A stretch of DNA of 64,000 nt from a virus. Lineage: Duplodnaviria; Caudoviricetes. The translations under genes were made by a program, and so were the position numbers. This document shows, in pieces, positions 1 through 63,567 of this stretch; the stretch's first letter is position 1, and each line of letters opens with the position of its first letter. The notes under the pieces are model-generated. The model made no database searches, had not been told where the DNA came from, and saw only the letters and a list, made by a program, of their open reading frames with translations. The stretch lies in the IMG/VR virus record IMGVR_UViG_3300017492_000028, positions 1 to 64,000 of that record; one strand, 5' to 3'.

Positions 1-3000
1 ACATTGGAGTATCAAGTCGTCCGTCAGGAGTTCTTCTTTCAAATCTATCAATAATAGCTAGATTCTTATTAAGTTGGTCTTCAAAACCAAATTCGGCACT
101 ATATTTAAAATACTTTTGATTAAGAGCTTGCATAGCATTGATGTATTTTTTAAGTGCCCTATAACTAGCATTACTGTAAATTACAGCTTTACGATATGCT
201 TCTTCATTTTTTCTTCTATCTGGTAATGGATTTCTATAAGGGTCATATTCTTCACGAGGAACATAATTTCCGTCATCATCAATAAACATTGGATTAGTAA
301 GTCTATCTAATTCTTTATTAATTTGACTTAGTTCATCAACGTATGCTGGATCAAGATTTCCTTGTGCATCAATATGACTTCTTAATTCATATTGTTTATT
401 TCTTAATCTATTATATTCTTCAAGAACAAGTCTGTGAGCTTTATATCTCTCATCAGTTTCTATTTCTGCATCAGGGTCTTCTTCATCAAAAGGAGATTTA
501 ATTTTATCAACTCCTATCATATCATTAAGAATAGCAAGTCTGGCTTTATAATAATCATCAACTAATGGTTGTTCTGTATGAAGAAGTTTAAATTTGTCAT
601 ATTTATATTTAGCTAATGTTGCGGCTGTAGTCCAACTGCCATTTTCAGAAGCAATCCTAATATTTTCTCTTAATTGCTCAAGTTTTGTTTTAAATGCTTC
701 ACTATATTTTGTATGACGTTTGCCCTCTCTATTTACTATTTTATTAAAATCAATACTAACTCCAGCAGATTTAGCTTTACGCTCAAGTTCTTTATACCAC
801 CTATCAAGTTTAACACATTCGTCTTTGGCTTTCATTTCAGCTGCACGAACTGTTTTCATTGTTTCTTTTGTAATAACTTGAACAAGAGGATTTCCGCTTT
901 CTTGTAAACCGTTTATCCAAGCATTTATCATACTTGTTCCATGATAACCGTCAAAAATAGTAAGTAAATCAGATTTGATATTAGGGTTACTGCTTAATTT
1001 GGCAAGATATTCATTACCAAAATTAATATATGCCTGACTAAGTAAAGAATTACTGCTAAAATCATTAATTAAATCTTTAATCTTTTTAAGGTCATTATTT
1101 AAGTCCTCATCTTCTGAACTAACATTTAAGTCAGAATAAATACTAAGATTCTGAATAAGGGCTTTACTACTAAGAATAAGTTTTAAAAAACGAAGTTTCT
1201 CAGCAGGATTAGATTTAATAACTTGGATAAGACGAGGATCTCCTATGTTGAGATAACCTCCCGTAGAAGAATCTGCAGTAAAATACATAAATTGCTCTTC
1301 AAAGTCTTTAACAGCATTAGTCACAAATTCAGCTGTGGCTTTGATAATTTTAGCTTGGTCTCTATCATTAACTTCTTCTTGCTCATCACCTACGATATTA
1401 TTTATCTTTTTATTTGCATCCTTAGCAGAATCAAGACCTTGTTTAGACAAGTTTCTAATTGCTTTTAATCCGGCTTCTTCTACTTCAGCAATAGACGAAG
1501 CATGAACAGTACTTTCTTCTATTTCAGGGGCTACAATGTAAACATCAGAATAACCAAGATTTTTACCAAGAGAATTTACATCTTCCTGTAACGATTTAAT
1601 GACATTATATTTGCTTGTACCACTAGCATCCTTAATATATTCAATATCGTCACCACGATGATCATATTGAAGATATGTAGAATATTCTCTAAATGGGGCT
1701 TTATATATTCTATACATACCGTCAAGACCATTTATCTTAACAATAGCCCCATTATCTCTTCCTGTTCTATTTATGACTTGCTGTAAAGCAATACTACGAA
1801 GATATAGGGAATGCCTGGATTCTTCTCCTGTAAAATGATCAATAATAGATTGTTTAACTCTATTAAGACCGTCTTTTACAACTCTACCATTAATTTGTTC
1901 TGGTATATTATTTAAATCAAGTTTCTGATTAGGAACAACTGAAAAACGTTTATAAATTGTTGATGAATCTTTTGTAGCATCTGGCGCAAGATATTCATTT
2001 TTACGTTTTTCAAATTCTTGCATAAATTCTTCATCCGTTGTAACAGCAATACCACTTTCATACTCTGTCATCATATCGAGATAATATTGCATGTCAGGAT
2101 ATTCATTATTAGCTGGATTAGAACTAAATTTGCTATTTTCATTAATTTCAAGTTTGTTAATGGGAATGAGCCAAATATTATTACCACGTTGACATATTTT
2201 ATAAAGAGTATGGTCATTCTTTTTATTAAATCTAAGTTTAACATAAGCATGTAATGGTCCATAAGCAAAACCGTTATCTCCATCTATCTCTTGCTCCCAT
2301 TCAAACTCACCTATTTGATATTTATTGATTAAATCAATATTATCTTTACTCATTTCAATACGTATTGCACCGTCATATTTAGGACTAAGCTCGAAATCCG
2401 AGTTATTGTGTTTCTGTACGTCAAATGCCGAAATACCCCTTAAATTTGTGCTTTGCCGTACAAAATTGTGTCGGATGAGTAATCTATCATCCCTTGAGAT
2501 AGAACTCTGCAAATCGGAAAATAAATTATTAAGTTCCCTAGTAAATCCTATACCATATTCAATAGCACCGTCATTTTCCCTATCACTATACAGCAAATCA
2601 TTAGGTACATATTTGCTAATACTATTATTTCTCATCTTAAATCCTTCAACAACAAACGCATACTTTATTATATCAATAGCTGTAGCTTGTATTAAAGGGT
2701 TAGTATTATTAAACATCTTTCTAAATTCAGAAAACATTAATTCTGAATTAACAGAGTCATCTACTATTTTTAAAGTTTGAGCACCAAGTCTATCACTACC
2801 AGAATTATTGAAATTAGTAGTAATATAATTAGTAAGTATTCCGTCAGAAAAATTATAACGAATAAACTCTAATTTTTGAGCAGGACTAAGTTTAAGGAAA
2901 GCATCTATGTCTTCTCTACGGGGGGCGTTTACATCAGTAATTATAACCTGATGTGATTTACCTTCTTCATCTGTATATGAAAAATCCGCTGGATAATCAA

Positions 3001-6000
3001 AACCAAATAAACGTTTTCTTTCAGCAGCAACAATATCTATATTGGATTCATTTTCATAAGTTGGTCTATTTGGATAGAATTTGCCATTTTTATAAACAAG
3101 AGGATATTTAATACTTTCAACTTGATTATAAAGATAATTAAGTATGTAAGTTTGATATTCGTTATATGCTTTTTCAGTTATGTCAAATCTACCTTTATTT
3201 AAAGCATACTCTAAGTCATAAAGCATAGTTTTAAAGTCACCACGTCTAGTAGGAAATAATAAGTCATTAACCTTAACACTAGTAGCACTAACATATTTAA
3301 GAAAAGCATTTACCATAGGATAAGCACTTTCTTCAGTGTTTCTGCCGTCAGAAAAGTCAGGATAAATAGCATCTAAAAGATTATTATCACCGACACGAAG
3401 ACAAATTGGGTTACCATCTGCTTCTTGAGATTGCAGATATTCCATATCATCAAATACCTTTTGGGTAGCAAACAGACTTTGTTTAGCACCAAATTTGTCA
3501 GGCTTAGTAAGCATAACAAGCTGATTAATTTTATCTCCTAGTGTTTTAAGACTTTTAAACCTAAGTATAGTTCTTAAATCATATAATATATTATCCGCAT
3601 TATTACCACTATTAAGTCTATCAATTTGGCGTTCTGCGTCAAGAACTGCTGGAGTAAGCTTTTCTATATGAAAATAATCTTTTACTGCTTCTGTTATATC
3701 CTTAATAGAACTATATTCTGTGAATTTATTTCCATTTATATCTCTTATAGGCAGTTGCAAAGCAATTTGTCTAAATGCTGCATCAATAGGATTAAAACTA
3801 GCATTAGAATATATTGAATTAGATCTATTATACTGATTTACTATAGCACTAATCCCAGGCAATGCTAAGAAACTAATAGCGGTGTCATAATTACTACCAA
3901 TATCTAATATTGTTTTGAATGCATTAAAAGTATAATCATTTTCATTAAATATAGCTCCTTCTTTAATTGCGTCAAGAATGTGAGCAGTAGTCTCAGAACT
4001 ATAGCATGTAATAAGTTTACCGTCAACATTAAGATTGTCATTACTCCAGCCAAACATTTTATGCTTAACCAGAATTTTACCATTATTAAGAACTTCAGCA
4101 TTACCAAATCTAGCCTCAAGTTCTTCTTTTGTATATTTATTAGCAGAATAATAAACAGAAATAGTATAGTTACTACTTAATGTAGCATGGCAAGTATTAC
4201 AAATAGAAGTAAACGCATCTCTATTAACGCTAATCGCTTTAAGAGCTGCACCACCCATTGCATCAGTTTGATATGCAGCCTGGTCAAAAAAACTATATGG
4301 AGAACGAGATTTCTTAGCTTGACTAATACGACTTGGTTCACAACGCATTTTAGCAGACGTAATGTCATCAAAATTACTACGAGAAAGATTTTCTTCAAGA
4401 GTATTTGGATCCATCATTATATCAAGCATTATTTGCACAAGTTCATTATCTCGTTCTTCACGAGCAGTGTTTGTTATATTAAATTCCTCTTCAGAAAGTA
4501 AATCGTTTTGAGCAGCATAATTTCTCCAATTAAATTTAGGGTCATTAGATAATTCTTTATCTTCATCAGTCATATTACGACGAAGATAATATTTATAAGA
4601 ACCTTTTACTTTATGAATATACCCTTCTTTATCTAAATATGAATTAAACTGTATTCCATAAACAGAGTCAATATCAAAGTCAGAACCTGTTTGAGTAACC
4701 CAACCGTCAGGAACAATAATAGTAGAGCCATAAGCGTCATCAGTAAAACCAACAACTTTCATTACGCATATTGATTGCTTACCCTCTGTAGGTATACGAT
4801 AACCAATTATAGTATCAAGACCTGCATCACGTAATTCTTTGAGTAAATCTTCGTCACTCTTTAAAGTTCCGTCTGGGCGAGTATATTTTAATCCAAAATT
4901 AGATTTTGGAAGCATAACTTCAATATATGGAGCAGTTTTCTTTTTAAGATTCTCTTTTTTATCTGAAGAAAGATTTTTATATTCTTCTTCTGAGTACCAC
5001 TTTTTACCGTCTGTCCAAGCCTCTGGATGATATGCAAGTTCTCTACTATAAATAGCATTTTCAACTTGATCACTTATAGGTTTCCAGCCAATACCTGTAA
5101 CCTGAGCGACATGAAAACCCGGAAGTTTTTGTCTAGTAATATTATTATTAAACAATGCTTGAGCCATATTTTCTAGTTTTCTAGAAACAGTACTCATATA
5201 CATTGGCATAATAGTAGCAGGAATTTTAGTAGCACCATCACTTATAAGAGTAAAGTAGTCCATCATATTACTATCAAGATTCTGACGGACAGCTTCATCT
5301 TTAAGCATATCGTATAATTTCTTAAAATCTAGTCCTTTAATATTACCATTTTCATCTAAATCAAAAGTTCCATTATCTTTTAGCTTAACACCTAAATTAG
5401 TCATTAAAGATTGAAAACTATATCTGATATTAGCTTCATAAACTTTAAAAAATCTCTTTTTATAAGGATTAGCAGAATCTAAATTATTTAGTATTTTCCT
5501 CATAATTTGATTACTTGCTTTATTCTTAGCATTAAGATGCTCAGGTGTTTCTTGCTGTGTATAAAGATAATTATAATTATATGCTTCAGTAGCATATTCT
5601 ATATTCTTCGCAAAATCACTGTTTTGTGTTCCATTTTGCGCATCTTGTATGATTTGCTCGTTAATGTTACCTTTATTATCCCAAAGAGTAAGAACATTAT
5701 GCTTACCTGCTTTAGAAGTTTCTTCTGTATTAAGCTGGTCAATATTATATTTTTTCATAATATTAGCAACAGCCTCAAGTTGAGTACCTCTAACAAGTCT
5801 AGGAACTAATACAAATTCAGCATTTTTAATTTGTCTAGGAGCGCAAACGTTAAGATTTCCGTCATAACTTAAATCATAATAGAAATTCTTTTGAACTTTA
5901 ATAAATTCTCCAATAGTTTTTGCATCAAGCGGTTTGCTTTCATCAAGTATTGCATCTATAAGAGGTTTATATTGTTTTAACTGACCTTTGGCAGCAATAC

Positions 6001-9000
6001 GCCTAATCCACTCATCAAAACTTATATAGGATTGTGCATCATTAGCCTTAGTAGCTTCACCGTAAAAACCGTGCATTAAAGCTTGTGCCTTAAAAGTAAA
6101 TTTGGCTCTAGCATTTGCTGATTTATCTTTAGATTGACTTATCCAATTTTCTACTAAAGCGTCAACTAATCTACCATTTGGACCAGTAACAGGGTCAACA
6201 CGAACTGTATTCTTAATAGTTACAGCTCTAAATCTATCATATTGCTTAACTCTATATCCACCAAAAAACTCAGTTTTATCAAGTTCAGTATTTTTCAGTA
6301 CATGTTCTTCTTTATTTTTATCTTGACTATCAAAGAAAAGATTAGTATTGACTATACCAAATGGAAGACCGCTACCTTGAACTTCTTTTGCTCGTTTAAG
6401 TTCATCTTGACTACTCTTATAAAATTTACTATCACCCTCAAACAAATCATTAAACGACATAAAGGCAAGAGCATAATTAAGAGCAAAATTCGTAATATGC
6501 GCATCATCGACTGTAGTCCCATCAAGAAAATCTCTGTAACTATTAATTTCTCGTCTAGCAACATTTATAGTAGCTTGTATATAATCCGCAATAGCTTTAT
6601 CAACAGTTTCAGTTTGCTCAACAGTAAGACGTGGAACTCCATTGCTATCAACATGAAGATAACTATTTGTGTCTAGCCCCCCGTAGAGAAGATTGATATG
6701 TCCTGCATCACCTCCTGTAAAATCTTCATTAAATACTTTATCTAAGAAGTTAACACCAAGAACAGTAAATTTATCAGAATGAAACACGTTTCCTGTAAGT
6801 TTACCACGTTCAATTATTTCACCTTTATAATGATATTGTTTGTATAATCTATTTTTATCTTTTGCAACATCTTTAATTCTATTTGGATCAACAACCATTC
6901 CGTCAGATGTTGTTTCAAATATTAAATTTAAGGCGTCATGAGCATCTCTAAGTTCTTGTATAAACTGTTTTTTAAACAACCTAAATACAGGATGTTGTCT
7001 ATTTACAGTAAATTTAAGTTCATTATTAGCTATTGCATCTGCTTTAAACTTAGTTCTAACACCTTGCAGCAGTGTTTCATTCCAAGCATAATTATTTAAT
7101 GCTGTACCAACTAATTGAACATCTGTTATTCTATAATTACCATTAGATTCTTGGATAGGTTTACCTTTAATAACAATAACCTGAGAACCCTTACCGTTAT
7201 TATAAGTACAATAAACACTTACATTACCGTCTTTATCCTTATTGTGCATAAACTGATAACTTTTAACGCTTATATCACCTATCTTTTTAGATGTTAAAGC
7301 TGATATAGCTTGTTTAGTTGTAAGTTTATGCTCTACACCGAAGTTATATAATGCTTCTTCTGCCGAAGTTAACACAGGAATACTATTAACTTTAGCTTCT
7401 ATTGTTCTATTAAATTCATCCTCATTTTCTATAGTATATATGCCCTCTGTATCATATCTTACACTAGTTACTTGGTAATTCTTTGGTGCATCAGAGGGTG
7501 TTCGCATGAAGTAAGTTGCAGTTTTGTAACCTCTTTCTTTAAGCAGCATATCAGCAGCTTTATTGCCATGAAAGAAATTAATATAACCAGTAGCAATATA
7601 ATCACCTGTACTCATTTTAGAATACATAACATGACGTTGATTACCACGATTTGTTGCACCATTAAACAAAGAAATACTTATTAGTCTGCTAGCATATTCT
7701 GTTGGAACAATATTTCCATTTTCATCCTTTCTAAACAGTCCGGGATTTATTGGACTTTCCATAAGAATATTACTGAAATCGTATTGATGACTTAAAAATT
7801 TAATTTTAGCAAAACTATTAAGCGCGTCCTTGGATTTAAGTAATCTTCTAATGTTTGTTATAAGACTATCATTAAGCACATTACTTGATTTGTTACCCTC
7901 TACGTTTATAGAATTAAGTTCTGTATCTTCAACAACAAAATCTTTAATCAAATAAGCTATCTGCTGTGCAGCATTATCCGCATTTACTTCAACATACGGT
8001 TCGGAGTATATTGCTGATAAACTTTTATAATCTGACTTTGTAGGAAATTCACCATTAGAATATTTATTCCAAATTTCCTGTCGTTTTTCAAAATCTTTAT
8101 TTTTTGAGTTAGTCAGTAAATCATTTATTCTTTTAGCTTCAAATAATCTAGCTTGTCTATCTTCATATTGTAATTGTGTTTTCTTTACACCTTGTAATAT
8201 AGTAGCTAGATTGCCCATAAGAAGCTGGAAGTTCTTTTTAGTATTTACTACACCGTCAATTTTATGATTACGAATATAATAAGCTAATGTAGCATCTGTA
8301 ATACTAGGCATTACAGATTGTATTAAACTAGTAACTTTTTCTAATAAATGAGCTTCAGCTTTGGGGTTTTTAGCTTTACCTTGTTTATTAAATGTAAGTT
8401 CAATTAAACCAAGTTGTTTATTTGGATTTCCTGCAGCATTTACACTATCACCAGTTATGTCAGAATAAATATTGTCTAAATAATCAAAGTCTGTAGTAAT
8501 CAACGAATTGGATAGTTGATTACGTAATTTATATCCTAATGAAGTAACTTTGTCGGATTGAGCATTTCTAACACGAACTGTAGAATCAGCGCCATTAACT
8601 ACAGTTTCTGTTTTAACCATTATCTGCTTTCTGAATGTTCTAAAGAATTTAATAGCAAAATCTGCATCTTTCTCACATTGTCTAGCAATCATTTCAAGAG
8701 CACCAAATTCTGGTATTGCTTCAGCTTTACCATGTAAACTATTTATCATACTTGATATATCAGTATAATCAATAGTACTTCCGTCGTAAAGCAGCTCACA
8801 CCATTTATGAGCACCCAAAGCTCTAACTTGTCCTATATCATTAGAATAATCATAATCCCATTTAGTAATACCTTTTGGTGTAACACCTAAATCTTTTGAA
8901 CTTTTTAATACAGGGAGCATAGCAAGATATACAGATATTTCTTCAGGGATATGCTCTTCAAATGTCTTAAATTCTCCACTGTGATTATCAAAGTTTTTAA

Positions 9001-9799
9001 TACTTTCGTCTTTAGTTTCTTCACTTATAGATTGCTCATCCCCCGATAAAGTATCATCATCCTCAATTTCTTCATTATATTCCTCTTCTCGTTTATCCTC
9101 CTCAGATTTTTCTTTTTCTATAGCGCGAAGTTCTTTAGTCATAAACACCGTATCAAATAAATCTTGTGATACAGTTTTATCATGGTCATCGCTAAGTCTT
9201 ACACCACTAAATGCTTCTTTAAATAAAGCATAAAGGTTTTTATCTTGATAAGTAGCATTTTCAGAATCAAATATTTCATCTATTACATTAAAATCTTTTT
9301 TGGCCCATATAGCATTTATTTCTTCCAATGACTTACCTGTTATATCAATAGCTCTACGCTTAATTGCTTTTCTTAAATTTACTTTAGCCATTCCAATATA
9401 ATGGTCTCTAGCATCACTTTTAGGAACACTGCCATTTAGTTTGTCATTAAGATAATTGGTAGCAATAGTATAGCGTAAAAACTCTATACCGTCTTGACGT
9501 CCTTTGTCAGTAACATAACCTTGTATTTTTCCGGTATATTGATTTTTAACAGTTGCACGAGCATTAGGAACTTTATAATAATAATACTCTCTAATATCGC
9601 TAGCCATTTGACGACTATTAGGGGTATTAAAATTAGGCTCCTTATTATACTTTGCTTTATACCAATCTTTAAACCCTTGCAACGGAGTTCCGTTACTAGC
9701 CATAGCCTCACAAATGTAATTACTTAGGGTTGTTTCATTACATGTTTTTGCAAGTGAGAGAAAGGCTTTAGTACTTTTTTGTTCTAAACTACAATACAT
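1..9799 (-). CDS. Virion RNA polymerase (crAss-like, phi14:2 gp66-type), 3'-partial, >=3266 aa
   Basis: Not in ORF track (no stop in window). ATG at 9799 (MYCSLEQKSTKAF...). Frame checked open at 9799-9250, ~6680, ~4670, ~2915, ~1260 and 1-90, not codon by codon throughout. GYRIPTEGKQS...PDGWVTQTGSDFDIDSVYG with catalytic DFDID at 4667-4681. Confidence 0.93.
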   Translation of the reverse strand, partial: MYCSLEQKSTKAFLSLAKTCNETTLSNYICEAMASNGTPLQGFKDWYKAKYNKEPNFNTPNSRQMASDIREYYYYKVPNARATVKNQYTGKIQGYVTDKGRQDGIEFLRYTIATNYLNDKLNGSVPKSDARDHYIGMAKVNLRKAIKRRAIDITGKSLEEINAIWAKKDFNVIDEIFDSENATYQDKNLYALFKEAFSGVRLSDDHDKTVSQDLFDTVFMTKELRAIEKEKSEEDKREEEYNEEIEDDDTLSGDEQSISEETKDESIKNFDNHSGEFKTFEEHIPEEISVYLAMLPVLKSSKDLGVTPKGITKWDYDYSNDIGQVRALGAHKWCELLYDGSTIDYTDISSMINSLHGKAEAIPEFGALEMIARQCEKDADFAIKFFRTFRKQIMVKTETVVNGADSTVRVRNAQSDKVTSLGYKLRNQLSNSLITTDFDYLDNIYSDITGDSVNAAGNPNKQLGLIELTFNKQGKAKNPKAEAHLLEKVTSLIQSVMPSITDATLAYYIRNHKIDGVVNTKKNFQLLMGNLATILQGVKKTQLQYEDRQARLFEAKRINDLLTNSKNKDFEKRQEIWNKYSNGEFPTKSDYKSLSAIYSEPYVEVNADNAAQQIAYLIKDFVVEDTELNSINVEGNKSSNVLNDSLITNIRRLLKSKDALNSFAKIKFLSHQYDFSNILMESPINPGLFRKDENGNIVPTEYASRLISISLFNGATNRGNQRHVMYSKMSTGDYIATGYINFFHGNKAADMLLKERGYKTATYFMRTPSDAPKNYQVTSVRYDTEGIYTIENEDEFNRTIEAKVNSIPVLTSAEEALYNFGVEHKLTTKQAISALTSKKIGDISVKSYQFMHNKDKDGNVSVYCTYNNGKGSQVIVIKGKPIQESNGNYRITDVQLVGTALNNYAWNETLLQGVRTKFKADAIANNELKFTVNRQHPVFRLFKKQFIQELRDAHDALNLIFETTSDGMVVDPNRIKDVAKDKNRLYKQYHYKGEIIERGKLTGNVFHSDKFTVLGVNFLDKVFNEDFTGGDAGHINLLYGGLDTNSYLHVDSNGVPRLTVEQTETVDKAIADYIQATINVARREINSYRDFLDGTTVDDAHITNFALNYALAFMSFNDLFEGDSKFYKSSQDELKRAKEVQGSGLPFGIVNTNLFFDSQDKNKEEHVLKNTELDKTEFFGGYRVKQYDRFRAVTIKNTVRVDPVTGPNGRLVDALVENWISQSKDKSANARAKFTFKAQALMHGFYGEATKANDAQSYISFDEWIRRIAAKGQLKQYKPLIDAILDESKPLDAKTIGEFIKVQKNFYYDLSYDGNLNVCAPRQIKNAEFVLVPRLVRGTQLEAVANIMKKYNIDQLNTEETSKAGKHNVLTLWDNKGNINEQIIQDAQNGTQNSDFAKNIEYATEAYNYNYLYTQQETPEHLNAKNKASNQIMRKILNNLDSANPYKKRFFKVYEANIRYSFQSLMTNLGVKLKDNGTFDLDENGNIKGLDFKKLYDMLKDEAVRQNLDSNMMDYFTLISDGATKIPATIMPMYMSTVSRKLENMAQALFNNNITRQKLPGFHVAQVTGIGWKPISDQVENAIYSRELAYHPEAWTDGKKWYSEEEYKNLSSDKKENLKKKTAPYIEVMLPKSNFGLKYTRPDGTLKSDEDLLKELRDAGLDTIIGYRIPTEGKQSICVMKVVGFTDDAYGSTIIVPDGWVTQTGSDFDIDSVYGIQFNSYLDKEGYIHKVKGSYKYYLRRNMTDEDKELSNDPKFNWRNYAAQNDLLSEEEFNITNTAREERDNELVQIMLDIMMDPNTLEENLSRSNFDDITSAKMRCEPSRISQAKKSRSPYSFFDQAAYQTDAMGGAALKAISVNRDAFTSICNTCHATLSSNYTISVYYSANKYTKEELEARFGNAEVLNNGKILVKHKMFGWSNDNLNVDGKLITCYSSETTAHILDAIKEGAIFNENDYTFNAFKTILDIGSNYDTAISFLALPGISAIVNQYNRSNSIYSNASFNPIDAAFRQIALQLPIRDINGNKFTEYSSIKDITEAVKDYFHIEKLTPAVLDAERQIDRLNSGNNADNILYDLRTILRFKSLKTLGDKINQLVMLTKPDKFGAKQSLFATQKVFDDMEYLQSQEADGNPICLRVGDNNLLDAIYPDFSDGRNTEESAYPMVNAFLKYVSATSVKVNDLLFPTRRGDFKTMLYDLEYALNKGRFDITEKAYNEYQTYILNYLYNQVESIKYPLVYKNGKFYPNRPTYENESNIDIVAAERKRLFGFDYPADFSYTDEEGKSHQVIITDVNAPRREDIDAFLKLSPAQKLEFIRYNFSDGILTNYITTNFNNSGSDRLGAQTLKIVDDSVNSELMFSEFRKMFNNTNPLIQATAIDIIKYAFVVEGFKMRNNSISKYVPNDLLYSDRENDGAIEYGIGFTRELNNLFSDLQSSISRDDRLLIRHNFVRQSTNLRGISAFDVQKHNNSDFELSPKYDGAIRIEMSKDNIDLINKYQIGEFEWEQEIDGDNGFAYGPLHAYVKLRFNKKNDHTLYKICQRGNNIWLIPINKLEINENSKFSSNPANNEYPDMQYYLDMMTEYESGIAVTTDEEFMQEFEKRKNEYLAPDATKDSSTIYKRFSVVPNQKLDLNNIPEQINGRVVKDGLNRVKQSIIDHFTGEESRHSLYLRSIALQQVINRTGRDNGAIVKINGLDGMYRIYKAPFREYSTYLQYDHRGDDIEYIKDASGTSKYNVIKSLQEDVNSLGKNLGYSDVYIVAPEIEESTVHASSIAEVEEAGLKAIRNLSKQGLDSAKDANKKINNIVGDEQEEVNDRDQAKIIKATAEFVTNAVKDFEEQFMYFTADSSTGGYLNIGDPRLIQVIKSNPAEKLRFLKLILSSKALIQNLSIYSDLNVSSEDEDLNNDLKKIKDLINDFSSNSLLSQAYINFGNEYLAKLSSNPNIKSDLLTIFDGYHGTSMINAWINGLQESGNPLVQVITKETMKTVRAAEMKAKDECVKLDRWYKELERKAKSAGVSIDFNKIVNREGKRHTKYSEAFKTKLEQLRENIRIASENGSWTTAATLAKYKYDKFKLLHTEQPLVDDYYKARLAILNDMIGVDKIKSPFDEEDPDAEIETDERYKAHRLVLEEYNRLRNKQYELRSHIDAQGNLDPAYVDELSQINKELDRLTNPMFIDDDGNYVPREEYDPYRNPLPDRRKNEEAYRKAVIYSNASYRALKKYINAMQALNQKYFKYSAEFGFEDQLNKNLAIIDRFERRTPDGRLDTPM

Positions 9800-9853: not shown

Positions 9854-12800
9854 TTATTTACATTTAATGCTTATATTTCCACTATCTATTAAATCTATCA
9901 TTTGCTCTTTAGATGAATTTGGAAGACTGTCAATATATGCTCCAATGCTAGGATGTTCACCTATTCTAGAACCTAATATATCATCATCATCATCACTGGC
10001 AAAAATATCATCTTCGTATTCAATGCCCTCTGTTTTTTCTGTTTGTGTTTCAGTTGTATCTTCTGTGTCAGTTGTGTCTTCTGTTTGTGAAAACAAATCA
10101 TTTGTTTTAATTAAATCTCCAAGAGCAATAAATTCTTTTTCTCTAAGACTATTCTTTTTAATATCCCAACCAAATACATCAGATATAATTTCAAGTATTT
10201 TTTGAAATAGTGTTTTGGACGTTGCTTTGTTATCTACAACTGCTGAAGTTTCATTAAGTAATTGAACAAGATTTGAATTAGTCAAACTTTCAACTAAAAA
10301 CTCCTCAATTCCGTATTTAGTAAATTCTTTAGCTATACTATTGCCTTTCCACTTACCACTATCAACTTCTTTTTTAAAGTCATCAAATACCTCATTTACT
10401 TTATTAAGTATTTTATCCTTTTTACCACTATCATGTAGAATCTTATGTAGTTGCTCATGAATAAGCTTGCGTACTGCTTCATTTCTTCTACGGGGGGTTA
10501 GACATAAGCCAATCCACTTATTACTTACATATATATTGCCTGTTTTCTCATCATAAGCAGCATACGCATCTTTAAGTTTTTTATCTATATTACCTATATT
10601 TTCTACAAATATAATATTTTTTGGTAACAATCCAAATCCCTGTATAGGCAATATTAAATTTTTAACTTTTTTAATCTCATCCTTGCCTAGAAGAATATTA
10701 GCAAGTGCTACACCTTTATCAGTATTATCACTTTGTAATATATTCCTAACATCAGATTCAATTTTATCAGATTCCAAATTGATTTCTGATTGGCTTTCTG
10801 TAGAATTTTCATTTTCACTTTCTTCAGCAAATTCTTCTTTAGGGGTTATTTTTACATAAAATGACTGATTAGCTATTTGTTCTTCATTGTCAAATGAATA
10901 AAAGTTAGTTTCGTCCCCATTATAATTTTTGCTCTTAGCAACATTTACTCTAATAAGATTATTATCTAGAATAAAACTTTTATAGGATATAATATTATGT
11001 ACATGAGGATTGGCTTTATCTTTTGAATTAGGTATTTCTATTCTAAAACTACCATCTGGATTAGCTTTAAAGAAACCATTAAGTTCTCTTTTTTTATTAC
11101 TTTCATAATCTAATGCTCCATAATTAAGCTCATAAGTAGAAACTGCAAATGCTTCTTTAAAAAACTCTTTCAGTTGTTTCTTTATGTCATCAGCTTGGTC
11201 TTTGCTAACTTTACTAAGATTAACAGCTCTATTGTCATTAGGAAGTTTTACAGCATAACTAGGAGCAATTCCTGTAGTTTTAAATATTCTAACATATTTT
11301 TTATTTGGAAGAGATATTAAAACGCCTATATCAACACCATTATTATTAGTAATGTGATGAATTAGTGGACCACCAAATATATGACGATTGTTATTCTTTA
11401 CTTTACCATTTCTCCAAAGATTGTCAATAAAATCTATTAAATTAGTTCCACTTCCGTCTTCTTGATTGAAATAATCATCAACCAAGTTTTGAAGTTCTTC
11501 AAATAATTCTTTAGATATTTGTTTAGCCTCTTTACCAACACAACTATCTTTAGTTAAAACAGAAAAAGCAGAAGTAAGTCGTGTTTCACCATTTCCATTA
11601 GTTAATGCAATCATTGTAGTACCAGGCTTTATCTGACTAGTATCTGATAAATAAAGTTTACTACCATTGCTTAGTTGCATAGAATATCTATCAATGTTAC
11701 CGTTTTCATCAACGCTCATTGGTTTATAAGCAATCTCAAATGACTGTTGATTGTCAATAGTAAGGGATTCAGCTATAGGAGTTGCTTTACTTCTTACTTC
11801 GGCAATATTTGTTCCATTATAACGAACATTCTCTCTTATTCTAGGACTATTAATTCTAGATATAGTAAAGTCAAAATGACTAACTGATTTGCCAACATTA
11901 TAAATGGTATTATAACTTGTTTTTAATTTATCAAACCAATTATCAAGACTATTACTTATAGCAAGATTAATTCTTTCACGAGAAACTGTTGCAGAAGTAC
12001 CAACATATCTCCATAATTTAACAACTGAATTAACAATAATACTTGGGTCTATACTGTCATCAATTAATTCATCACTTATAGCTTTTTTAATAGCATTGGT
12101 ATTCATGAAATGCTTTAAATCAGCTTTACTTATTTCTTTCTTATTACATAGTTCAAATATAAGCTGATTAATTTTTTTCGCATCATCTGTTTCTTCAGAA
12201 AGCCAACTATTGAATCTATCTTTAAGAGGTGATTCTCCAGTGTTGCAATTTATTTCATAATTCCAACCCTCATTTCTAACGAAATAAGTATCTGGTTTAC
12301 TTACTTTAGGAATAGACATATAAGCAATTACTTGCCCATTTACCTCAAGTGCAATTTGATTACCTATTTTTCGAGTAGATAATTTATCTCCAACTTTCAA
12401 ATGTTCAAGAACATTATAAAGATTATTAAGACGTTCTGTATCTAGACTTCTTTGAAATGCAGAAATTACAGTGTTAACACCAATTCGATGCTCTTCTATA
12501 AAACCAAGTTTATCTACATTAGCTGTAGGTATATCTTTTTTAGCTCTAGCAAGTATTGCATCTTGTGAATCAAATTTGTCCATAACTATATATTCATAAT
12601 TAGGATTTTTAGATTGTTCCTCAAGATACGACTTAATAACTGAATACATTGCATCAGCCGTAGTATCATTATTGCTTACTTCATTACACCACCTAAGCAA
12701 GTTTTCTAGACTAATAATCTTCTTTGTTATACCGTCAGAATTGGTAAACACATAAGAATTAGTAGCAGCAATATATTTAGTAAGCATATCACTAGCTGCA

Positions 12801-34794: not shown

Positions 34795-34923
34795 TTAAGT
34801 TGTACTAGAATGATATTTGCTTATTTGCTCATCAACATAGTCTTTAGTAGCATAATTATTGTCAATAAACTCTTTTACTTTAGCCCAAAGAGTTGCAAGA
34901 CCTTGTTCATCTAAATATTCCAT
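34795..34923 (-). CDS. 42-aa mini-protein consisting mainly of the N-terminal fibre motif
   Basis: Hand translation MEYLDEQGLATLWAKVKEFIDNNYATKDYVDEQISKYHSSTT*; fills the gap between neighbouring genes. Confidence 0.8.
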   Translation of the reverse strand: MEYLDEQGLATLWAKVKEFIDNNYATKDYVDEQISKYHSSTT

Positions 34924-50517: not shown

Positions 50518-50771
50518 GGTTCACTATTATCATTAACATTAATTTTATTACTAGCTTTATCAACAATAATTATTTACAGTTAATTTGAAAATCATCTAAA
50601 TCCCTATCAAAAGCATTATTTTGCCATGCAAACTATGCACAAACCACTATACGCAAAATATAGCCTATATTCCTCTCTACGGGGGTGCTAAAACAAACCA
50701 AATTTATTGTCCGATTAACTAATCAGCCATTAAAAATTTAACACGGTACAAATGATTTCCAAAGTGCAATA

Positions 50772-55559: not shown

Positions 55560-55898
55560 TCATTTAAATAACAATATTATCAAAGTGGCTAACAATCCAC
55601 CACCAACAATACTTAATATATTTCTTTGCGTTTTATATTCTTTTGCAACAGTTTTATAATGCTCTATTTGAATACTATCATTTGCAATAATACTATCCTT
55701 TTTTGCATCTATTTGTTTAAGATATTTAAGTTCAGTCATCTTAATAACTGCTTTACGTAAATCAGAAACAGAAACAGTTACACTATCTCGTGTTATACCC
55801 CCCGTAGAGAGAATATGTGCATTACTCGCTGATAAGTTTATAGAACAAACTAACAACGCTATCGTTATCAATGCTTTGAATTTGTATAATTTCTGCAT
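55560..55898 (-). CDS. Spanin-like membrane protein
   Basis: N-terminal signal plus C-terminal TM; overlaps upstream gene; follows lysin. Confidence 0.45.
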   Translation of the reverse strand: MQKLYKFKALITIALLVCSINLSASNAHILSTGGITRDSVTVSVSDLRKAVIKMTELKYLKQIDAKKDSIIANDSIQIEHYKTVAKEYKTQRNILSIVGGGLLATLIILLFK

Positions 55899-56097
55899 CT
55901 TTTACACTATCTAGTTTTTTTATATCAATTACTAAACTATCATTTCGTTTTTGAATAGTTTGTATTTCTTCAGTGTTTATGTCTATCACATTCTCTTCTA
56001 CGGGGGTGCTAGAACAACAATGCGAGATAGTAATAGCTATTAATAGCACTAATGCAAAACCAAACACTATTACTAGTATATTATTAAATTCTTTCAT
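55822..56097 (-). CDS. Spanin-like (inner membrane) protein
   Basis: N-terminal TM, CC pair, coiled coil. Confidence 0.45.
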   Translation of the reverse strand: MKEFNNILVIVFGFALVLLIAITISHCCSSTPVEENVIDINTEEIQTIQKRNDSLVIDIKKLDSVKDAEIIQIQSIDNDSVVSLFYKLISE

Positions 56098-56705
56098 ATT
56101 ATATCATCCTCCGTAAGAAGTGTGTAAGTAAATGTACTGCCATTGCCACACTCTATCTGCTTATTACAAGCTGTCATGAATGTATTAAAATCATCTCGTT
56201 TGGCAAAGACTTGGCAACCTGCGCTCCAACCGTCAACTATTATAGACGAAGTGCCAGCTTTATGAATATTAATTCCAAATATGCCAGTATCAATAGTACT
56301 AGGATTAAAATCATATTTGTCATCTTTATTATTATCCCTATAAACAGGTAATGGCTTAGCTTGGCAAAGAGCTTTATACTTACCCTTATGAAGTCCTATT
56401 TTATAAGCACTTCTATATTGACCAGGAACAAGTATAGCACATCCTTTATAATTTTGAATTTGTTTAAGAGATTTAAGACCTGGAGTAGTAGTAATTGGAA
56501 ATACTTTTCTTACAAGTCTATCATCTTTATCTTTGTACTCTAATATTAGAGCATCGTTAAAATCGTTTGTACAAACGTTGCCATTACGCCGTACACCAAC
56601 AATATTAAGATTATAATTTCCTTTTTCAAAATAGGCATAGCCTTTATTCTTCAATATTTCTTTAAGATTAATACCATTACAAATAGGTATAATATTCGTC
56701 TTCAT
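56094..56705 (-). CDS. Putative endolysin with L,D-transpeptidase (YkuD)-like motif
   Basis: GINIHKAGTSSIIVDGWSAGCQV (H...SxGC). Confidence 0.65.
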   Translation of the reverse strand: MKTNIIPICNGINLKEILKNKGYAYFEKGNYNLNIVGVRRNGNVCTNDFNDALILEYKDKDDRLVRKVFPITTTPGLKSLKQIQNYKGCAILVPGQYRSAYKIGLHKGKYKALCQAKPLPVYRDNNKDDKYDFNPSTIDTGIFGINIHKAGTSSIIVDGWSAGCQVFAKRDDFNTFMTACNKQIECGNGSTFTYTLLTEDDII

Positions 56706-57695
56706 TTAAAATAAATTTAATTCTTTATTAACATTTGCAGCTTGTAGTTCAAGTCTCCTATCTTCAAGTACTGCACAAGCTTCTTGTCTAAGATAATTAA
56801 TTCTAAACCATTTTACAGTTTCTTCACCATTTGGATCTATACGATAAATAGGTGCATTATTAAACCTTTGTGGTTGACCCCAAGCGTTCTTAATAAAAGG
56901 ACTGCCAATATGACATAATCCTAAGCCAATACAAGGTATTCCAAGAATAAGCTCAACCATTAACGCATACATGCTTAATTGCATTGAATAGTGCATACCA
57001 TTACAATTAGGGAGATGAGTTAATGGAGGTAGCATTGATTCAGTCTTATCTACCCATTCATTAGTAAGCTGATTAGGATTTGTATGTTTATCTTTTTTAT
57101 AATAACCACTTGTAAATTGTAAACCTTGTCTATTAGTTTTCCAATCTAGAATAACAAAATTTTCAGGTTTATAGCATAATATATCAATAGTTCCACTAAT
57201 ACAATAGTCCATAAGATAAGCACCAATTTCAGAATAAATTGTGTAACCTTTGGATGTATAATAGTCAAATACTCTATAAATTTCCGCATATTTATAATTT
57301 GTAGCTTCTTTAAATTCACCTATATTAAGAGGTTTAGGAATAAGATTTGGAATATCAGCTACAGTAATCTTTCTTCCTGTTTTCACATCAATAAGATATT
57401 TGATTGCATCTTCAAACATACTTGTTGATTTAATGGCGTCCTCTATACCATTATGAGTAGCTGTACCTCTAGTACATGCTTCATCTGTAATATCCTGCCA
57501 TTGTTTAGCAAGAGCTTTTTCTGTTGTATTTAATTCCCTAGCTTTCTTATGAAGCCAATATGCTTTATCAAACTTAGGAACATATTTATCATGTATAAGA
57601 GTAGTTACACTTGTATATTGATTACCAAGTGAATCATAATATTTATGACCGTCTTCTTCAAAATAAAGAAAATTACTGTTATATCTCTCGTCCAT
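56706..57695 (-). CDS. PD-(D/E)XK exonuclease (RecB/Cas4-like)
   Basis: SVTT..., GTATH, SGTIDIL, ILDWKT, QLSMY. Confidence 0.85.
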   Translation of the reverse strand: MDERYNSNFLYFEEDGHKYYDSLGNQYTSVTTLIHDKYVPKFDKAYWLHKKARELNTTEKALAKQWQDITDEACTRGTATHNGIEDAIKSTSMFEDAIKYLIDVKTGRKITVADIPNLIPKPLNIGEFKEATNYKYAEIYRVFDYYTSKGYTIYSEIGAYLMDYCISGTIDILCYKPENFVILDWKTNRQGLQFTSGYYKKDKHTNPNQLTNEWVDKTESMLPPLTHLPNCNGMHYSMQLSMYALMVELILGIPCIGLGLCHIGSPFIKNAWGQPQRFNNAPIYRIDPNGEETVKWFRINYLRQEACAVLEDRRLELQAANVNKELNLF

Positions 57696-58322: not shown

Positions 58323-58811
58323 TTAATAAGTATCTACTTGCCTAAAAGTACTACTATAACCTGCCATGTGAATATTAGCTATACTAACACCACGTCTAAG
58401 ACACCAAGTATGATAAGCGTCAACATGTTTTCTGGCATTAACTGCAATGATATATCTTAAATATCTTTCATGCTCTCTACGTCTAGCTTCGTAATCAGTA
58501 GTTTGTTTTCTAAAAACAATATATTCTTTCTTAGTTAAAGTGCGTCTTGCTTCTTTAATCATTTCAGCATAACCAGGTCTAAAATAAAAAGGAGCTTTAA
58601 CATCGCTATAACGTAATGTACAGCAATAAGGAATACCTACCCACTTATTATGAACAAGCACCTTAGCTGCATCAGTTTCAAGCTGTTCAACAATTTCTAC
58701 AGCAAGTTCTTTGTCGATAATATTATCGTCAATTGTTTTTAATATATCCTCTTTTCTTACAACAGTAATAGGTCTTTCAGTACCCGGATATTTATATTCA
58801 TCTTTTGCCAT
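58323..58811 (-). CDS. HU/IHF-like DNA-binding protein (tentative)
   Basis: 162 aa, basic; KEDILKTI...VGIPYCCTL; synteny. Confidence 0.45.
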   Translation of the reverse strand: MAKDEYKYPGTERPITVVRKEDILKTIDDNIIDKELAVEIVEQLETDAAKVLVHNKWVGIPYCCTLRYSDVKAPFYFRPGYAEMIKEARRTLTKKEYIVFRKQTTDYEARRREHERYLRYIIAVNARKHVDAYHTWCLRRGVSIANIHMAGYSSTFRQVDTY

Positions 58812-58823: not shown

Positions 58824-58860
58824 AAAAGAAATACGGAGGGTTTGTGTCTAACCCCCCGTA
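58824..58860 (-). terminator. Intrinsic terminator whose 5' stem arm is a copy of the dispersed motif
   Basis: Minus strand: TACGGGGGG-TTAGACACAAA-CCCTCCGTA-TTTCTTTT. Confidence 0.7.
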
Positions 58861-58876
58861 GAAAGAATATGAATTG

Positions 58877-59988: not shown

Positions 59989-60008
59989 CATAATTAAATT
60001 ATTTAATT

Positions 60009-60822: not shown

Positions 60823-60899
60823 TATTGTAGCTGAACCCCCGCCAGTTCATAAGTAAGTCAAACCACCCCCGCCATGTCAAGCAAAAGAGACTCCTTTTC

Positions 60900-61204
60900 C
60901 TCTTGAAAACAAAGCGAATTTCTCATCAAAACAAAACGAATTTTGGATTAAAAATTACAATTATGAAGAATATTAAAAACAAAGTGGTTAGCCACATCAT
61001 TGAGAATGGTTTTGGCTATATTCTGGTAGCAGGAATTGTTGCACTTGCAGTGCTACAGATTATCAGGGGTGAGTGCATCTATTGAGCATGGTAATGGCAA
61101 ATGGTAGCATTGTGACACAACGTGTCATGGTGCTGCCGTTTGTTACACACTTCCCACTCATCAAAACAAAACGAATTTTGCTCATTAAAACAAAACGAAT
61201 TTTG
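60900..61204 (+). repeat. Two tandem pairs of 24-bp iteron-like repeats CTCATCAAAACAAAACGAATTTTG
   Basis: 60900-60921 (degenerate), 60922-60945, 61157-61180, 61181-61204. Confidence 0.9.
60963..61085 (+). CDS. 40-aa single-TM peptide
   Basis: MKNIKNKVVSHIIENGFGYILVAGIVALAVLQIIRGECIY; start moved downstream of the repeats. Confidence 0.45.
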   Translation: MKNIKNKVVSHIIENGFGYILVAGIVALAVLQIIRGECIY

Positions 61205-61360
61205 GTGTGATAGTGGTACTGTAGCACGTAACGCATTATGCTATACTTGATAGAGTTGACAGCCATATCAAGATAGGTAATGACGTATGATGTTTACTTT
61301 ACTCACTTGTTGCCCATTTACTTATTCATTTATTTATTAATCATTTAATTCATTACAAAC

Positions 61361-62574: not shown

Positions 62575-62690
62575 CATCTTCTCTCCTCATTCTTCCTCAC
62601 TTCCATTTCTTTTCAGCTTATCCCTCCTCACTCTTCATTCTCTTTCCTCATTCTTCCTTACAACTATCATCTAACTCAACACTTCGTCTT
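62575..62690 (+). repeat. Pyrimidine-rich (C/T) tract
   Basis: CTCCTCATTCTTCCTCAC... with almost no G. Confidence 0.75.
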
Positions 62691-63257: not shown

Positions 63258-63285
63258 AAATTAAATAAAGAAAAGGAGAAATAAA

Positions 63286-63567
63286 ATGAATAAGAAAGTT
63301 TGTGGGGAACCCCCCGTAGAGAAGAAATATGATGATATTCAGCCCATGATATACAACAATCATATACATCATTATGTTCAATCTTATATCGCGTCTATAT
63401 TACAACATCGTGATTTAGGTAAGAACTTTGCAGACCCTCAAGATGTCAAAATATATCATCTTGATAATCATCCTGCATGGGTTAAGGCTATTACTAATTA
63501 TGGCACGTTCACTATTAATAAGCGTGCTATGCTGAATGTTGAATTAACAGCATTAAAATGCTTATGA
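63286..63567 (+). CDS. Small early hypothetical protein
   Basis: 93 aa; AAGGAG 7 nt upstream. Confidence 0.65.
   Translation: MNKKVCGEPPVEKKYDDIQPMIYNNHIHHYVQSYIASILQHRDLGKNFADPQDVKIYHLDNHPAWVKAITNYGTFTINKRAMLNVELTALKCL

Follow-up and report, generated by a model that had tools for sequence, protein, structure and literature searches.

A GC-rich word kept about every 6–8 kb per strand in crAss-like gut phage, even within essential genes

The window (the whole stretch of DNA that was analysed, 64,000 nt) was shown to contain 18 exact copies of the 9-mer CCCCCGTAG, 11 on the plus and seven on the minus strand; the whole record of 72,982 bp contained 21. A search for the 14-mer with up to two mismatches gave 16 occurrences in the window, among them the variant CCTCCCGTAGAAGA at 1257, and the exact 9-mers plus this variant add up to 19 copies (12 plus, seven minus), which reproduced the counts and positions of the initial annotation. 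The word is GC-rich and the genome otherwise has 30% GC. Its constrained core covers about 13 nt (a C-run, GTA, R and AAG), and looser flanks of up to 30–44 nt, common to copies within this genome, widen the core here to roughly TTTGTGTCTAA-CCCCCCGTAG-AAGAAATATG.

Three copies were located in the virion RNA polymerase (vRNAP) gene (1–9799, minus strand): the variant CCTCCCGTAGAAGA (1257–1270, +), read as S-S-T-G-G, a copy in the P-R-R frame (2912–2925, −), and a copy read as L-L-Y-G-G (6677–6690, +) that has the same aligned place and orientation in 10 relatives. The second large gene of the RNAP module (9854–16690, −) carries an exact 14-mer in the P-R-R frame (10484–10497, −). An inverted close pair, 144 bp apart, is formed by an exact 14-mer on the left (13077–13090, +) and a copy on the right (13218–13231, −) that is read as T-P-V-E and is orthologous in three relatives. 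Exact 14-mers were also found in the gene at 19858–22176 (21216–21229, +; orthologous in seven relatives), where L-L-R-G is encoded directly ahead of a HExxH motif, and as S-S-T-G-G in a tail-tubular-like gene (26678–27514, −; copy at 27141–27154, +). A second inverted pair, 513 bp apart, consists of a copy near the start of the ORF at 29458–29922, read as P-P-V-E (29885–29898, −), and an exact 14-mer read as S-S-T-G-G in the ORF at 30049–30519 (30401–30414, +). The copy at 29886 had been described as read in two overlapping genes at once; the copy was confirmed, while the second gene is a 64-aa ORF (29858–30052) whose reality is uncertain. The fibre gene (36083–39868) contains a third pair, 345 bp apart, with a 9-mer copy read as S-P-V-E on the left (38821–38829, −) and a copy read as S-P-T-G-G on the right (39165–39178, +).

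Further along, a copy at 44656–44669 (+) covers the final codons and the stop of the gene at 44652–45584 (S-S-T-G-E-stop). Between the portal gene and a structural gene (49120–50445) lies an intergenic copy (50677–50685, −), at which no stable local fold was found. An exact 14-mer (51046–51059, +) falls into a loop of the portal protein, close to its C-terminus, that is variable and rich in indels; the copy introduces no insertion relative to orthologues. The copy read as L-S-T-G-G in the ORF at 55560–55898 (55799–55807, +; orthologous in 11 relatives) and the copy just past the lipoprotein-type signal of the ORF at 55822–56097, read as S-S-T-P-V-E-E (55994–56007, −), are the right and left cores, respectively, of a shared imperfect inverted repeat of about 45 bp, and this pair is kept in relatives at a spacing of 180–210 bp. 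The other intergenic copy (58852–58865, +) forms part of a hairpin that resembles a terminator and is read on the strand of the genes (58860 to 58832, −), copy and hairpin together covering 58832–58865; the hairpin has an 11-bp stem followed by TTTCTTTT (dG −17.3, z −5.1). The two intergenic copies of the initial annotation, at 50677–50685 and 58853–58861, were thereby recovered. The last copy (63310–63323, +) occupies codons 9–12 of a small early-side ORF (63286–63567) and is read as P-P-V-E.

The word was strongly over-represented. The expected number of CCCCCGTAG in the window was 0.01, and none of 100 dinucleotide shuffles gave more than one copy, which bears out the claim that an exact core in 18 copies is far above expectation. 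When synonymous codons were permuted within each gene (300 rounds), a mean of 0.14 and a maximum of two in-gene copies were obtained compared to 16 observed, so that codon-preserving shuffles do not reproduce the frequency. All five usable reading frames were found (S-T-G, Y-G-G, L-R-G, P-V-E and P-R-R), in agreement with the several frames noted earlier, and the sixth, which would place TAG in frame, never occurs. The rare codons ACG, GGG, CCC and CGG are used at word sites, while the same peptides elsewhere take common codons. A protein motif was rejected.

Related genomes contained the word as well. Eight complete or near-complete genomes had 16–26 copies each, and 135 copies were found in 80 related portal loci (1.31 Mb). 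Its presence in numerous assemblies that were made independently, and in the genomes of isolates, excluded an assembly or adapter artefact. Conservation of positions among orthologues, raised in the initial annotation, held in part: five of the 14 scorable in-gene copies had counterparts in 3–11 relatives that matched in both protein position and orientation, and the rest were lineage-specific. The conservation footprint extends from about −3 to +10, with 93–100% identity compared to 72–80% in the flanks (genome pairs 80% identical), and this footprint of about 13 nt sits inside diverged genes. Orthologous copies hold their orientation across genomes with portal proteins that are only 63–73% identical. 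Single sites turn over, yet the spacing persists. A jumping element was also rejected. Variants of the word were detected in several lineages: CCGCCCCGTARAAG in four related genomes, CCCCTGTARAG in Rudgehvirus jaberico and CCCCCRTARA in crAss002, and crAss001 contained 27 copies of a different word, CTCCAGAAG. Both crAss002 and crAss001 show the same layout, each with its own word. In phi14:2, no clear word was found, though a primase is present. The variants are single-base differences at nearly all sites of a genome, which points to a co-evolving, phage-specific reader.

The copies fall into one series per strand; the two series interleave, and each has an even spacing of about 6–8 kb. For the plus strand of this genome (n = 12), the minimum gap was 3.05 kb and the CV 0.31 compared to 0.90 for random placement (P < 0.001); even per-strand spacing was seen on most strands of nine genomes, and clusters of copies gave a CV of 0.45 compared to 0.91 (P = 0.001). 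Adjacent pairs within 700 bp were inverted in 34 of 34 cases and direct in none. Copies on the same strand are never close, whereas copies on opposite strands can sit side by side, the closest inverted doublet, in a relative, being 32 bp. Relative to genes, copies in coding DNA were oriented 81:54, the same ratio as that of the usable frames (3:2), and intergenic copies 36:23; orientation is therefore not tied to the transcript and tracks transcription only weakly, at about 60:40. Copies were four-fold enriched in intergenic DNA, where some of them are part of terminator-like hairpins, and the two thirds that lie inside genes add no length relative to orthologues. The copies favour intergenic DNA or variable protein loops. 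The even per-strand spacing, the always-inverted close pairs and the lineage-specific variants had been missed in the initial annotation.

These results show that the GC-rich word is a DNA-level signal under selection and a property of this phage lineage. The earlier conclusion that selection acts on the DNA and not on the protein is upheld by the synonymous shuffles, the footprint in diverged genes and the orthologues kept in the same orientation, and the description as a system of cis-acting sites dispersed over the genome, in the manner of Chi or uptake sequences among other signals, is likewise retained. Even spacing per strand, inverted close pairs and the weak transcription bias point to a signal that is read on each DNA strand separately, and it is very probably a DNA signal specific to strand or orientation rather than an RNA, a protein or a mobile element. 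No published description of the word was known to the initial annotation, and none was found in the papers searched.

We propose, with a probability of roughly 0.3, that each copy marks a point on one strand at which DNA synthesis begins, through either priming or nicking. The reader would be a phage-encoded replication enzyme, possibly a DnaG-type primase recognising GTA and the purine-rich 3′ flank and copying the C-run into a G-rich primer that would be stable in an otherwise 30%-GC genome, or alternatively a site-specific nickase. With starts spread evenly along each strand, the stretch of DNA synthesised from any one of them would be limited in length, regardless of fork direction. Lineage variants would reflect co-evolution with the reader, and inverted doublets as well as intergenic copies within hairpins would mostly follow from non-coding DNA being where sites for both strands can be kept at the lowest cost. 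Consistent with such start marks are the enrichment beyond composition and codon usage, the even spacing per strand with 34 of 34 close pairs inverted, and the lineage variants together with the same layout under different words in crAss002 and crAss001. A DnaG-type primase is annotated in all these phages (this record is incomplete and lacks the primase gene), and a parallel is offered by the T7 primase, which selects about 26 strong sites via a pentanucleotide and a 10-nt 3′ flank (PMC12839067). On the other hand, starts every 6–8 kb per strand would give long Okazaki fragments, a sharp GC-skew step was not found at the sites, phi14:2 has a primase without a clear word, and the mild 60:40 bias is opposite to that expected if the C-run served as template on the lagging-strand template of forks moving co-directionally with genes. 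We also know of no DnaG-type primase with a site of 10–14 nt.

Instead, the word may be bound as duplex by a sequence-specific protein, either a genome-wide regulator of the stoperator type or a protein with an architectural or nucleating role in organising, coating or condensing the genome. A footprint of about 13 bp with looser flanks up to 30 bp, some 20–28 sites per genome with four-fold intergenic enrichment, and variants suggestive of co-evolution with a phage protein would all suit this explanation, which we nevertheless consider rather unlikely: such a protein should ignore the strand of a neighbouring site, yet same-strand copies repel each other (none of the 34 close pairs is direct) and opposite-strand copies do not, and orientation does not follow transcription as it does for stoperators. 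Nor was a repressor, an integrase or a conserved HTH protein found, and the binders suggested in the initial annotation did not hold up. The supposed HU/IHF-like product of 58323–58811 gave no Pfam/PHROG match and no HU/IHF structure match and has an all-helical fold, the 'IHF-like' gene at 28344–29033 encodes crAss tail ring protein 2 (PF25702, E 1.7e-49), the neighbouring gene at 27393 contains no HU domain, and the HTH_17 gene at 31935 is present in two of 14 related genomes compared to 14 of 14 for the signal. Recruitment of the vRNAP found no support, the phi14:2 study having seen no common motif upstream of vRNAP transcripts, and parS, matS and SlmA-type sites are poor analogues of a non-palindromic word that is evenly spread rather than clustered and spaced per strand. 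Similarly unlikely, and if anything a little more so, is a phage-private Chi-like mark, an orientation-dependent signal for an enzyme travelling along DNA, whereby a helicase-nuclease (a host AddAB/RecBCD-type enzyme, or a phage RecD-like helicase with a PD-(D/E)XK exonuclease) would be attenuated or switched on meeting the word from one side; phage DNA would then be protected or marked whichever end the enzyme enters. The word is asymmetric, each orientation is evenly spaced by itself, the strands alternate, doublets give both orientations at one place, and a RecD/Dda-like SF1 helicase (AAA_30 plus UvrD_C_2) and a PD-(D/E)XK nuclease (56706–57695) are encoded by the phage. Known Chi sites are only 5–8 nt compared to about 13 constrained positions plus flanks here, mosaicism breakpoints between related genomes did not cluster at the sites, no asymmetry of divergence was found around them, variants shift between closely related phages, as would be expected of a phage reader more than of a host enzyme, and a Gam-like nuclease inhibitor is among the annotations of the relative crAss002.

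Two further explanations fared worse. A selfish or host-derived repeat without phage function, a miniature REP/REPIN- or MITE-like element or its footprint spread by transposition or biased gene conversion, could account for the shared flanks of up to 30–44 nt, the REPIN-like inverted doublets and the GTAG followed by a hairpin arm at some intergenic copies, which recalls REP sequences. It is very unlikely given that two thirds of the copies lie in genes without added length, that orthologous copies persist in the same orientation despite the divergence of the portal proteins, that no transposition process is known to yield even per-strand spacing, that the core is non-palindromic, and that Pfam/PHROG searches in a non-exhaustive genome scan gave no transposase or HUH enzyme. 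Action at the RNA level appears the least probable; here CUCUUC-UACG-GGGGAG would form a small hairpin with a UACG tetraloop and the inverted pairs long-range stems, serving as terminators, processing sites or protein-binding sites in long late transcripts. This would fit the copy at 58853 within its terminator-like hairpin, the pair 55798/56007 that closes a stem (z −6), the unusually stable local folds at 32% of intergenic compared to 13% of coding copies, and the flanking stems of several intergenic copies in relatives, which differ in sequence and still pair. About 40% of copies, however, face the wrong way for a hairpin, in genes and between genes, most coding copies have no fold, the core is invariant without covariation, the CCGCCCC variant loses a stem pair through its G-to-C change and shows no compensating substitution, and even spacing on both strands has no RNA rationale.

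Compared to known systems, the word resembles the uptake sequences of Pasteurellaceae (USS) and Neisseriaceae (DUS) in its core (9–12 nt in USS/DUS) with looser flanks, its presence inside genes, in more than one frame and at places where the protein tolerates it, inverted pairs between genes that also serve as terminators, lineage variants and a spacing more even than chance. Those sequences are found in bacteria with natural competence, where an uptake receptor recognises them, whereas a phage genome has no uptake step; they are also about 3–4 times denser and are not known to follow a spacing rule per strand. Chi (RecBCD/AddAB) is likewise asymmetric, orientation-dependent, over-represented and dispersed, but is a 5–8 nt signal of host genomes skewed with replication direction, unlike a word of about 13 nt that varies among related phages, alternates strands and shows no clustering of mosaic breakpoints. 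The stoperators of Cluster A mycobacteriophages (sites of the L5 gp71 repressor) are similar in being asymmetric, 13–14 bp long, lineage-specific and present genome-wide at 20–35 per genome; they follow transcription, are mostly intergenic and accompany a repressor and integrase in temperate phages, none of which applies here. REP, BIME and REPIN elements share the inverted doublets and, in some intergenic copies, GTAG beside a hairpin arm, but REPs lie outside genes as imperfect palindromes that RAYT transposases mobilise, in contrast to a non-palindromic core found two thirds in genes with no RAYT-type enzyme seen.

Closer to the proposed start of strand synthesis are priming sites. The ssi signals of plasmids such as RSF1010 (ssiA/ssiB) lie on opposite strands in an inverted arrangement, as do the signals described here. 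Trinucleotide specificity is the only kind known to us for DnaG-type primases, the type found in crAss phages. As in T7, where strong sites consist of 5′-(G/T)2GTC-3′ and about 10 nt of 3′ flank (PMC12839067), strand-specific sites are scattered by the few dozen through a phage genome and a short core (GT plus one base) is joined to a longer 3′ flank. The constrained word here, a putative priming site, is longer and far rarer than the T7 sites, and evenly spaced sites through coding DNA have not been described for T7. For the nicking alternative, localized single-strand interruption motifs are present in phages T5/BF23, phiKMV-like phages and Pseudomonas phage tf. T5 nicks are confined to one strand, whereas the putative crAss-like nick sites include close inverted doublets (down to 32 bp in a relative) that would risk double-strand breaks if both were nicked. 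The shared features are a conserved motif of 9–20 nt that recurs, dispersed over the genome of a lytic phage, at no fewer than a dozen sites, one strand per site and, in phage tf, sites on both strands.

The phage in the window was found to belong to Crassvirales, close to Intestiviridae/Crudevirinae. A megablast comparison showed 73–76% identity to crAssphage isolates and 'Rudgehvirus jaberico' across portal and capsid genes, and the closest IMG/VR portal proteins were 73% identical. The record is 72,982 bp long and estimated to be 77% complete, and the window covers bases 1–64000. The GC-rich 9-mer CCCCCGTAG (hereafter the word) was present 18 times in the window, compared to 0.01 copies expected from dinucleotide shuffles. 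The count of 19 copies in the initial annotation, 12 on the plus strand and seven on the minus strand, was borne out as 18 exact copies and a variant at 1257, and 21 copies were found in the whole record. Copies in this genome have looser flanks in common, roughly TTTGTGTCTAA-CCCCCCGTAG-AAGAAATATG.

The initial annotation also proposed that selection acts on the DNA and not on the protein, and synonymous-codon shuffles had been named beforehand as a possible refutation. When synonymous codons were permuted within each gene 300 times, the shuffled genes contained a mean of 0.14 copies (maximum 2) compared to 16 in-gene copies observed, and the proposal was upheld. Five reading frames are in use, translated as STG, YGG, LRG, PVE and PRR; the sixth frame contains TAG in frame and is never used. 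At the word, STG and PVE are encoded with the rare codons ACG, GGG and CCC, whereas common codons are used elsewhere in the proteome. The copy in the portal gene falls in a loop that is variable and rich in indels, without lengthening the protein compared to orthologues. The word is therefore built into tolerant positions rather than inserted. The coding sites in general fall in locally more variable stretches. The footprint is about 13 nt: core positions were 93–100% identical compared to 72–80% for the flanks in genome pairs with 80% identity. In being conserved and asymmetric and in occupying fixed positions dispersed over the genome, the word resembles the localized nick motifs of T5, phiKMV-like phages and phage tf.

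The word was also found in relatives, with 135 copies across 80 related portal loci (1.31 Mb) and 16–26 copies apiece in eight related complete or near-complete genomes. Five of the 14 scorable in-gene copies had counterparts in 3–11 relatives that matched in both aligned protein position and orientation, namely those at 6679 (vRNAP gene), 13221, 21218 (adjoining an HExxH motif), 55800 (lysis-block gene) and 71209 (SNF2-type helicase); the remainder were lineage-specific. The variant CCGCCCCGTA[GA]AAG was detected at 22–26 sites in the four genomes nearest to the relatives G009 and G013 by nucleotide identity, and Rudgehvirus jaberico contained the variant CCCCTGTA[AG]AG. In the cultured crAss002, the variant CCCCC[GA]TA[AG]A was present at 28 sites; genes account for 21 of these, compared to 0.5 in synonymous shuffles. 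The cultured crAss001 (accession no. MH675552.1; Steigviridae) did not contain this word and had its own 9-mer, CTCCAGAAG, present 27 times (approximately 75-fold over the base-composition expectation). Twenty-five of these copies were in genes, compared to 3.65 in synonymous shuffles (maximum 7), in several frames and both orientations, with the strand order -++-++-+-++-++-++-++-+-+-++ and even spacing on the plus strand (CV 0.46, P = 0.001). A crAss001 word with the same layout would extend the system from Intestiviridae to a second Crassvirales family.

Across the nine genomes containing CCCCCGTAG, 68 of 203 copies (33%) were intergenic and 67% coding; intergenic DNA makes up only about 8% of the sequence. 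On the sense strand of genes the reverse form CTACGGGGG occurred 81 times and CCCCCGTAG 54 times, a 3:2 ratio that matches the ratio of usable frames exactly, and between co-directional genes the orientation ratio was 36:23, which shows that orientation is at most weakly linked to transcription. Spacing was more even than under random placement. The gaps between copy clusters in this genome had a CV of 0.45 compared to 0.91 for random placement (P = 0.001), and the widest gap was 8.9 kb compared to a random median of 14.2 kb. The plus strand alone (n = 12) showed gaps of 3.05–8.8 kb (CV 0.31, P < 0.001), and most strands of the nine genomes were likewise evenly spaced. All 34 adjacent pairs less than 700 bp apart were inverted (19 plus then minus, 15 minus then plus), as were 99 of 160 more distant neighbours, and strands alternated at 15 of 20 neighbour transitions in this genome (P = 0.025). 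Kinship of the related genomes means that pooled P-values overstate independence; single-genome tests on this record are unaffected. The layout is most simply described as two interleaved series, one for each strand, in which same-strand copies are spaced apart and opposite-strand copies are not. The word is shown to be a DNA signal that is both phage-lineage-specific and orientation-specific, and selection acts on its spacing strand by strand. Such a signal must serve a directional and range-limited process, either a start on one strand or an agent travelling along the DNA and arriving from either side.

Some copies lie within predicted hairpins. The copy at 58853 is part of a stem of 11 bp, after which TTTCTTTT follows on the gene strand (dG −17.3 kcal/mol, z −5.1). 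The pair at 55798/56007 forms the core of an imperfect inverted repeat of about 45 bp around approximately 190 nt in the lysis block (z −6.0) and is kept in relatives at a spacing of 180–210 bp. Several intergenic copies in relatives have flanking stems that have diverged yet still pair, or are paired with a partial inverted copy, and unusually stable local folds were found for 32% of the intergenic copies compared to 13% of the coding copies. We read this as non-coding DNA probably being the cheapest home for the sites of both strands, where paired sites may double as terminators. That the word is itself an RNA element is highly improbable: about 40% of the copies face the opposite way, the core is invariant without covariation, and the G-to-C change of the CCGCCCC variant, the form found in four related genomes, is uncompensated. 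On the same grounds of orientation, invariant core and uncompensated change, a UACG-tetraloop hairpin was ruled out as a general function.

A duplex-binding regulator or architectural protein that recognizes the word is a rather unlikely explanation, since the different rules for same-strand and opposite-strand copies count against it and a conserved candidate was absent. The binders proposed in the initial annotation did not hold up on closer comparison. The gene at 58323–58811, described as HU/IHF-like, had no family match and a predicted helical fold unlike HU/IHF; the gene at 28344–29033 encodes crAss tail ring protein 2; and the HTH_17 gene at 31935 was present in only two of 14 genomes. 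This small gene of excisionase/AlpA type (31935–32231, minus strand) lies in the middle of the tail module and is probably accessory. It is also unlikely that the word is a phage-private Chi-like mark. Chi is a short word of 5–8 nt that is over-represented and skewed in the host chromosome and stimulates nearby recombination, whereas the crAss word is longer, with about 13 constrained positions, and mosaic breakpoints do not fall at its sites. In indirect tests for a recombination hotspot or module boundary, identity breakpoints showed no clustering at sites (P < 0.01 in one of seven genome pairs) and divergence around sites was not asymmetric. A selfish repeat is very unlikely: no transposase match was found among the proteins scanned, and REP/REPIN or MITE-like repeats, which are extragenic, palindromic and mobilised by a RAYT or other transposase, differ from the crAss copies, two thirds of which are within genes, and which add no length and are orthologous across genomes.

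The reading we prefer, with a probability of roughly 0.3, is that the word may mark where synthesis of a DNA strand starts, through priming or nicking. The core of GT plus one base with its purine-rich 3′ flank is reminiscent of the strong priming sites of T7, where roughly 26 sites are selected by a pentanucleotide ending in GTC and some 10 nt of 3′ flank (PMC12839067). A primer copied from the C-run would be G-rich and stable in a genome of 30% GC. A DnaG-type primase is annotated in relatives, crAss001 and crAss002; the present record ends before its primase gene. The strand-specific sites on both strands every 6–8 kb give intervals compatible with lagging-strand fragments, and no close same-strand pairs occur. 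Against a start mark, no DnaG-type primase is known to us to recognize a site of this length, the implied fragment length is large, and no clear counterpart of the word was found in phi14:2, in which a primase is annotated. The sites also lack a skew signature: an apparent origin-like GC-skew step of 0.02–0.06 fell to 0.01–0.02 and was off-centre after site masking and an offset scan, and the step was absent in the CCGCCCC-variant genomes. A more specific form of the start-mark reading, in which a grid of strand-specific primer or nick sites runs through genes and spacers, strands are made in pieces of about 6–8 kb, and the word co-evolves with a replication enzyme to give a private variant per genus, must be regarded as doubtful.

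A 50-aa early-region protein (YFFxSSRK…GYKGSPVR) is encoded just past the window, at 64083–64235 on the plus strand of the record (4083–4232 of L264, the locus running past the window end). It was the only BLAST family confined to genomes containing CCCCCGTAG. As a protein tracking the word it was rejected, since a profile search detected diverged homologues in the genomes with the other variant; its distribution thus reflects phylogeny only, and nothing ties it to the word. All 13 IMG/VR genomes in the comparison encode the protein, in the relatives G008 and G009 as a fusion with a second copy of itself, and a search of Rudgehvirus jaberico did not reveal it. It belongs to no Pfam or PHROG family. 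The predicted model is confident (pLDDT 94) and has a beta-beta-alpha-beta fold, and its best structural match, to the host-RNA-polymerase inhibitor Gp2 of T7 (TM about 0.6, E 2), is weak and not significant. A RecD/Dda-like SF1 helicase (AAA_30 and UvrD_C_2) is encoded directly upstream of the DNA polymerase gene (66761–68260 of the record, plus strand; L264:6761–8260), and together with the PD-(D/E)XK nuclease at 56706–57695 of the window it possibly forms a phage helicase-nuclease pair.

The lysis block (55560–56705, minus strand), which hosts copies of the word, contains an ORF with an N-terminal lipoprotein-type signal (…ISHCCSS…; 55822–56097) and one with a C-terminal transmembrane helix (55560–55898). 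These ORFs share 77 nt, read in different frames, and could encode a two-part or frameshifted spanin-like protein; they adjoin an endolysin-like gene at 56094–56705 (phrog_3000, phrog_33083). At 60897–61205, where the gene strand switches, a unit of about 28 nt (…CTCATCAAAACAAAACGAATTTTG…) is present four times as two tandem pairs 235 bp apart; these iteron-like units could mark an origin or operator region. In the fibre gene at 36083–39868, a 9-nt period is repeated ten times at 39252–39380 (CCTTTATCx on the plus strand; Gly-Asp-Lys-type triplets on the gene strand). This collagen-like repeat adjoins the copy of the word at 39165. Five fibre-region genes have in common an N-terminal module of about 15 residues, encoded by 45-nt repeats at 34739–34783, 34879–34923, 35510–35554, 41574–41618 and 42233–42277 (repeat family D5), which suggests a shared docking module. 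In two relatives, G010 (for example at 1383, 42263 and 65878) and G014 (for example at 571 and 25788), several intergenic copies are followed by a TAGTAAA-rich repeat (…GATAGTAATAATAGTAAAGATAGTAAA…) that immediately precedes the next start codon and may be a promoter or operator block.

Searches for papers on the word itself or on a crAss promoter, motif or nick found no description of the signal, and no such motif is described in the crAss001 transcriptome paper or the phi14:2 vRNAP preprint. New here are the inverted close-pair rule, the breakpoint and skew nulls, the rejection of the proposed binders, the accounting by frame and synonymous shuffle for this genome, and the crAss001 word. Among the viruses of the human gut, crAss-like phages are the most abundant, and, to our knowledge, almost nothing is known about their replication and DNA handling. 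That some 20–28 evenly spaced strand-specific sites are kept despite the constraint on essential proteins means that a central step must be served. The signal is directly testable, since the cultured crAss002 and crAss001 carry their own versions. The lineage-specific words are practical markers, a quick sequence signature by which metagenomic fragments can be placed in crAss genera, and could help to find the reader that co-evolves with them. Should that reader be a primase or nickase, these genomes would offer a clear example of coding sequence that carries a grid of replication starts.

Compared to known systems of dispersed sites, the analogy with parS, matS and SlmA sites put forward in the initial annotation could not be sustained, nor could one with KOPS. 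Such systems have either palindromic sites concentrated in a single macrodomain or a word with polarity towards a terminus, whereas the crAss word is non-palindromic and evenly spread, and its strands alternate without a polarity switch. The stoperators of Cluster A mycobacteriophages, temperate phages with a cognate immunity repressor, are oriented with transcription, unlike the crAss copies (81:54 in genes, which equals the ratio of usable frames, and 36:23 between them); no repressor or integrase was found here, the sole HTH gene being the one present in two of 14 genomes. Uptake sequences (USS/DUS) are alike in having a core with flanks, in using several frames in genes, and in forming inverted intergenic pairs that serve as terminators, the same economy as that proposed here for the word. 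However, they are found in bacteria that are naturally competent and have an uptake receptor, whereas the genome here is that of a crAss-like phage.
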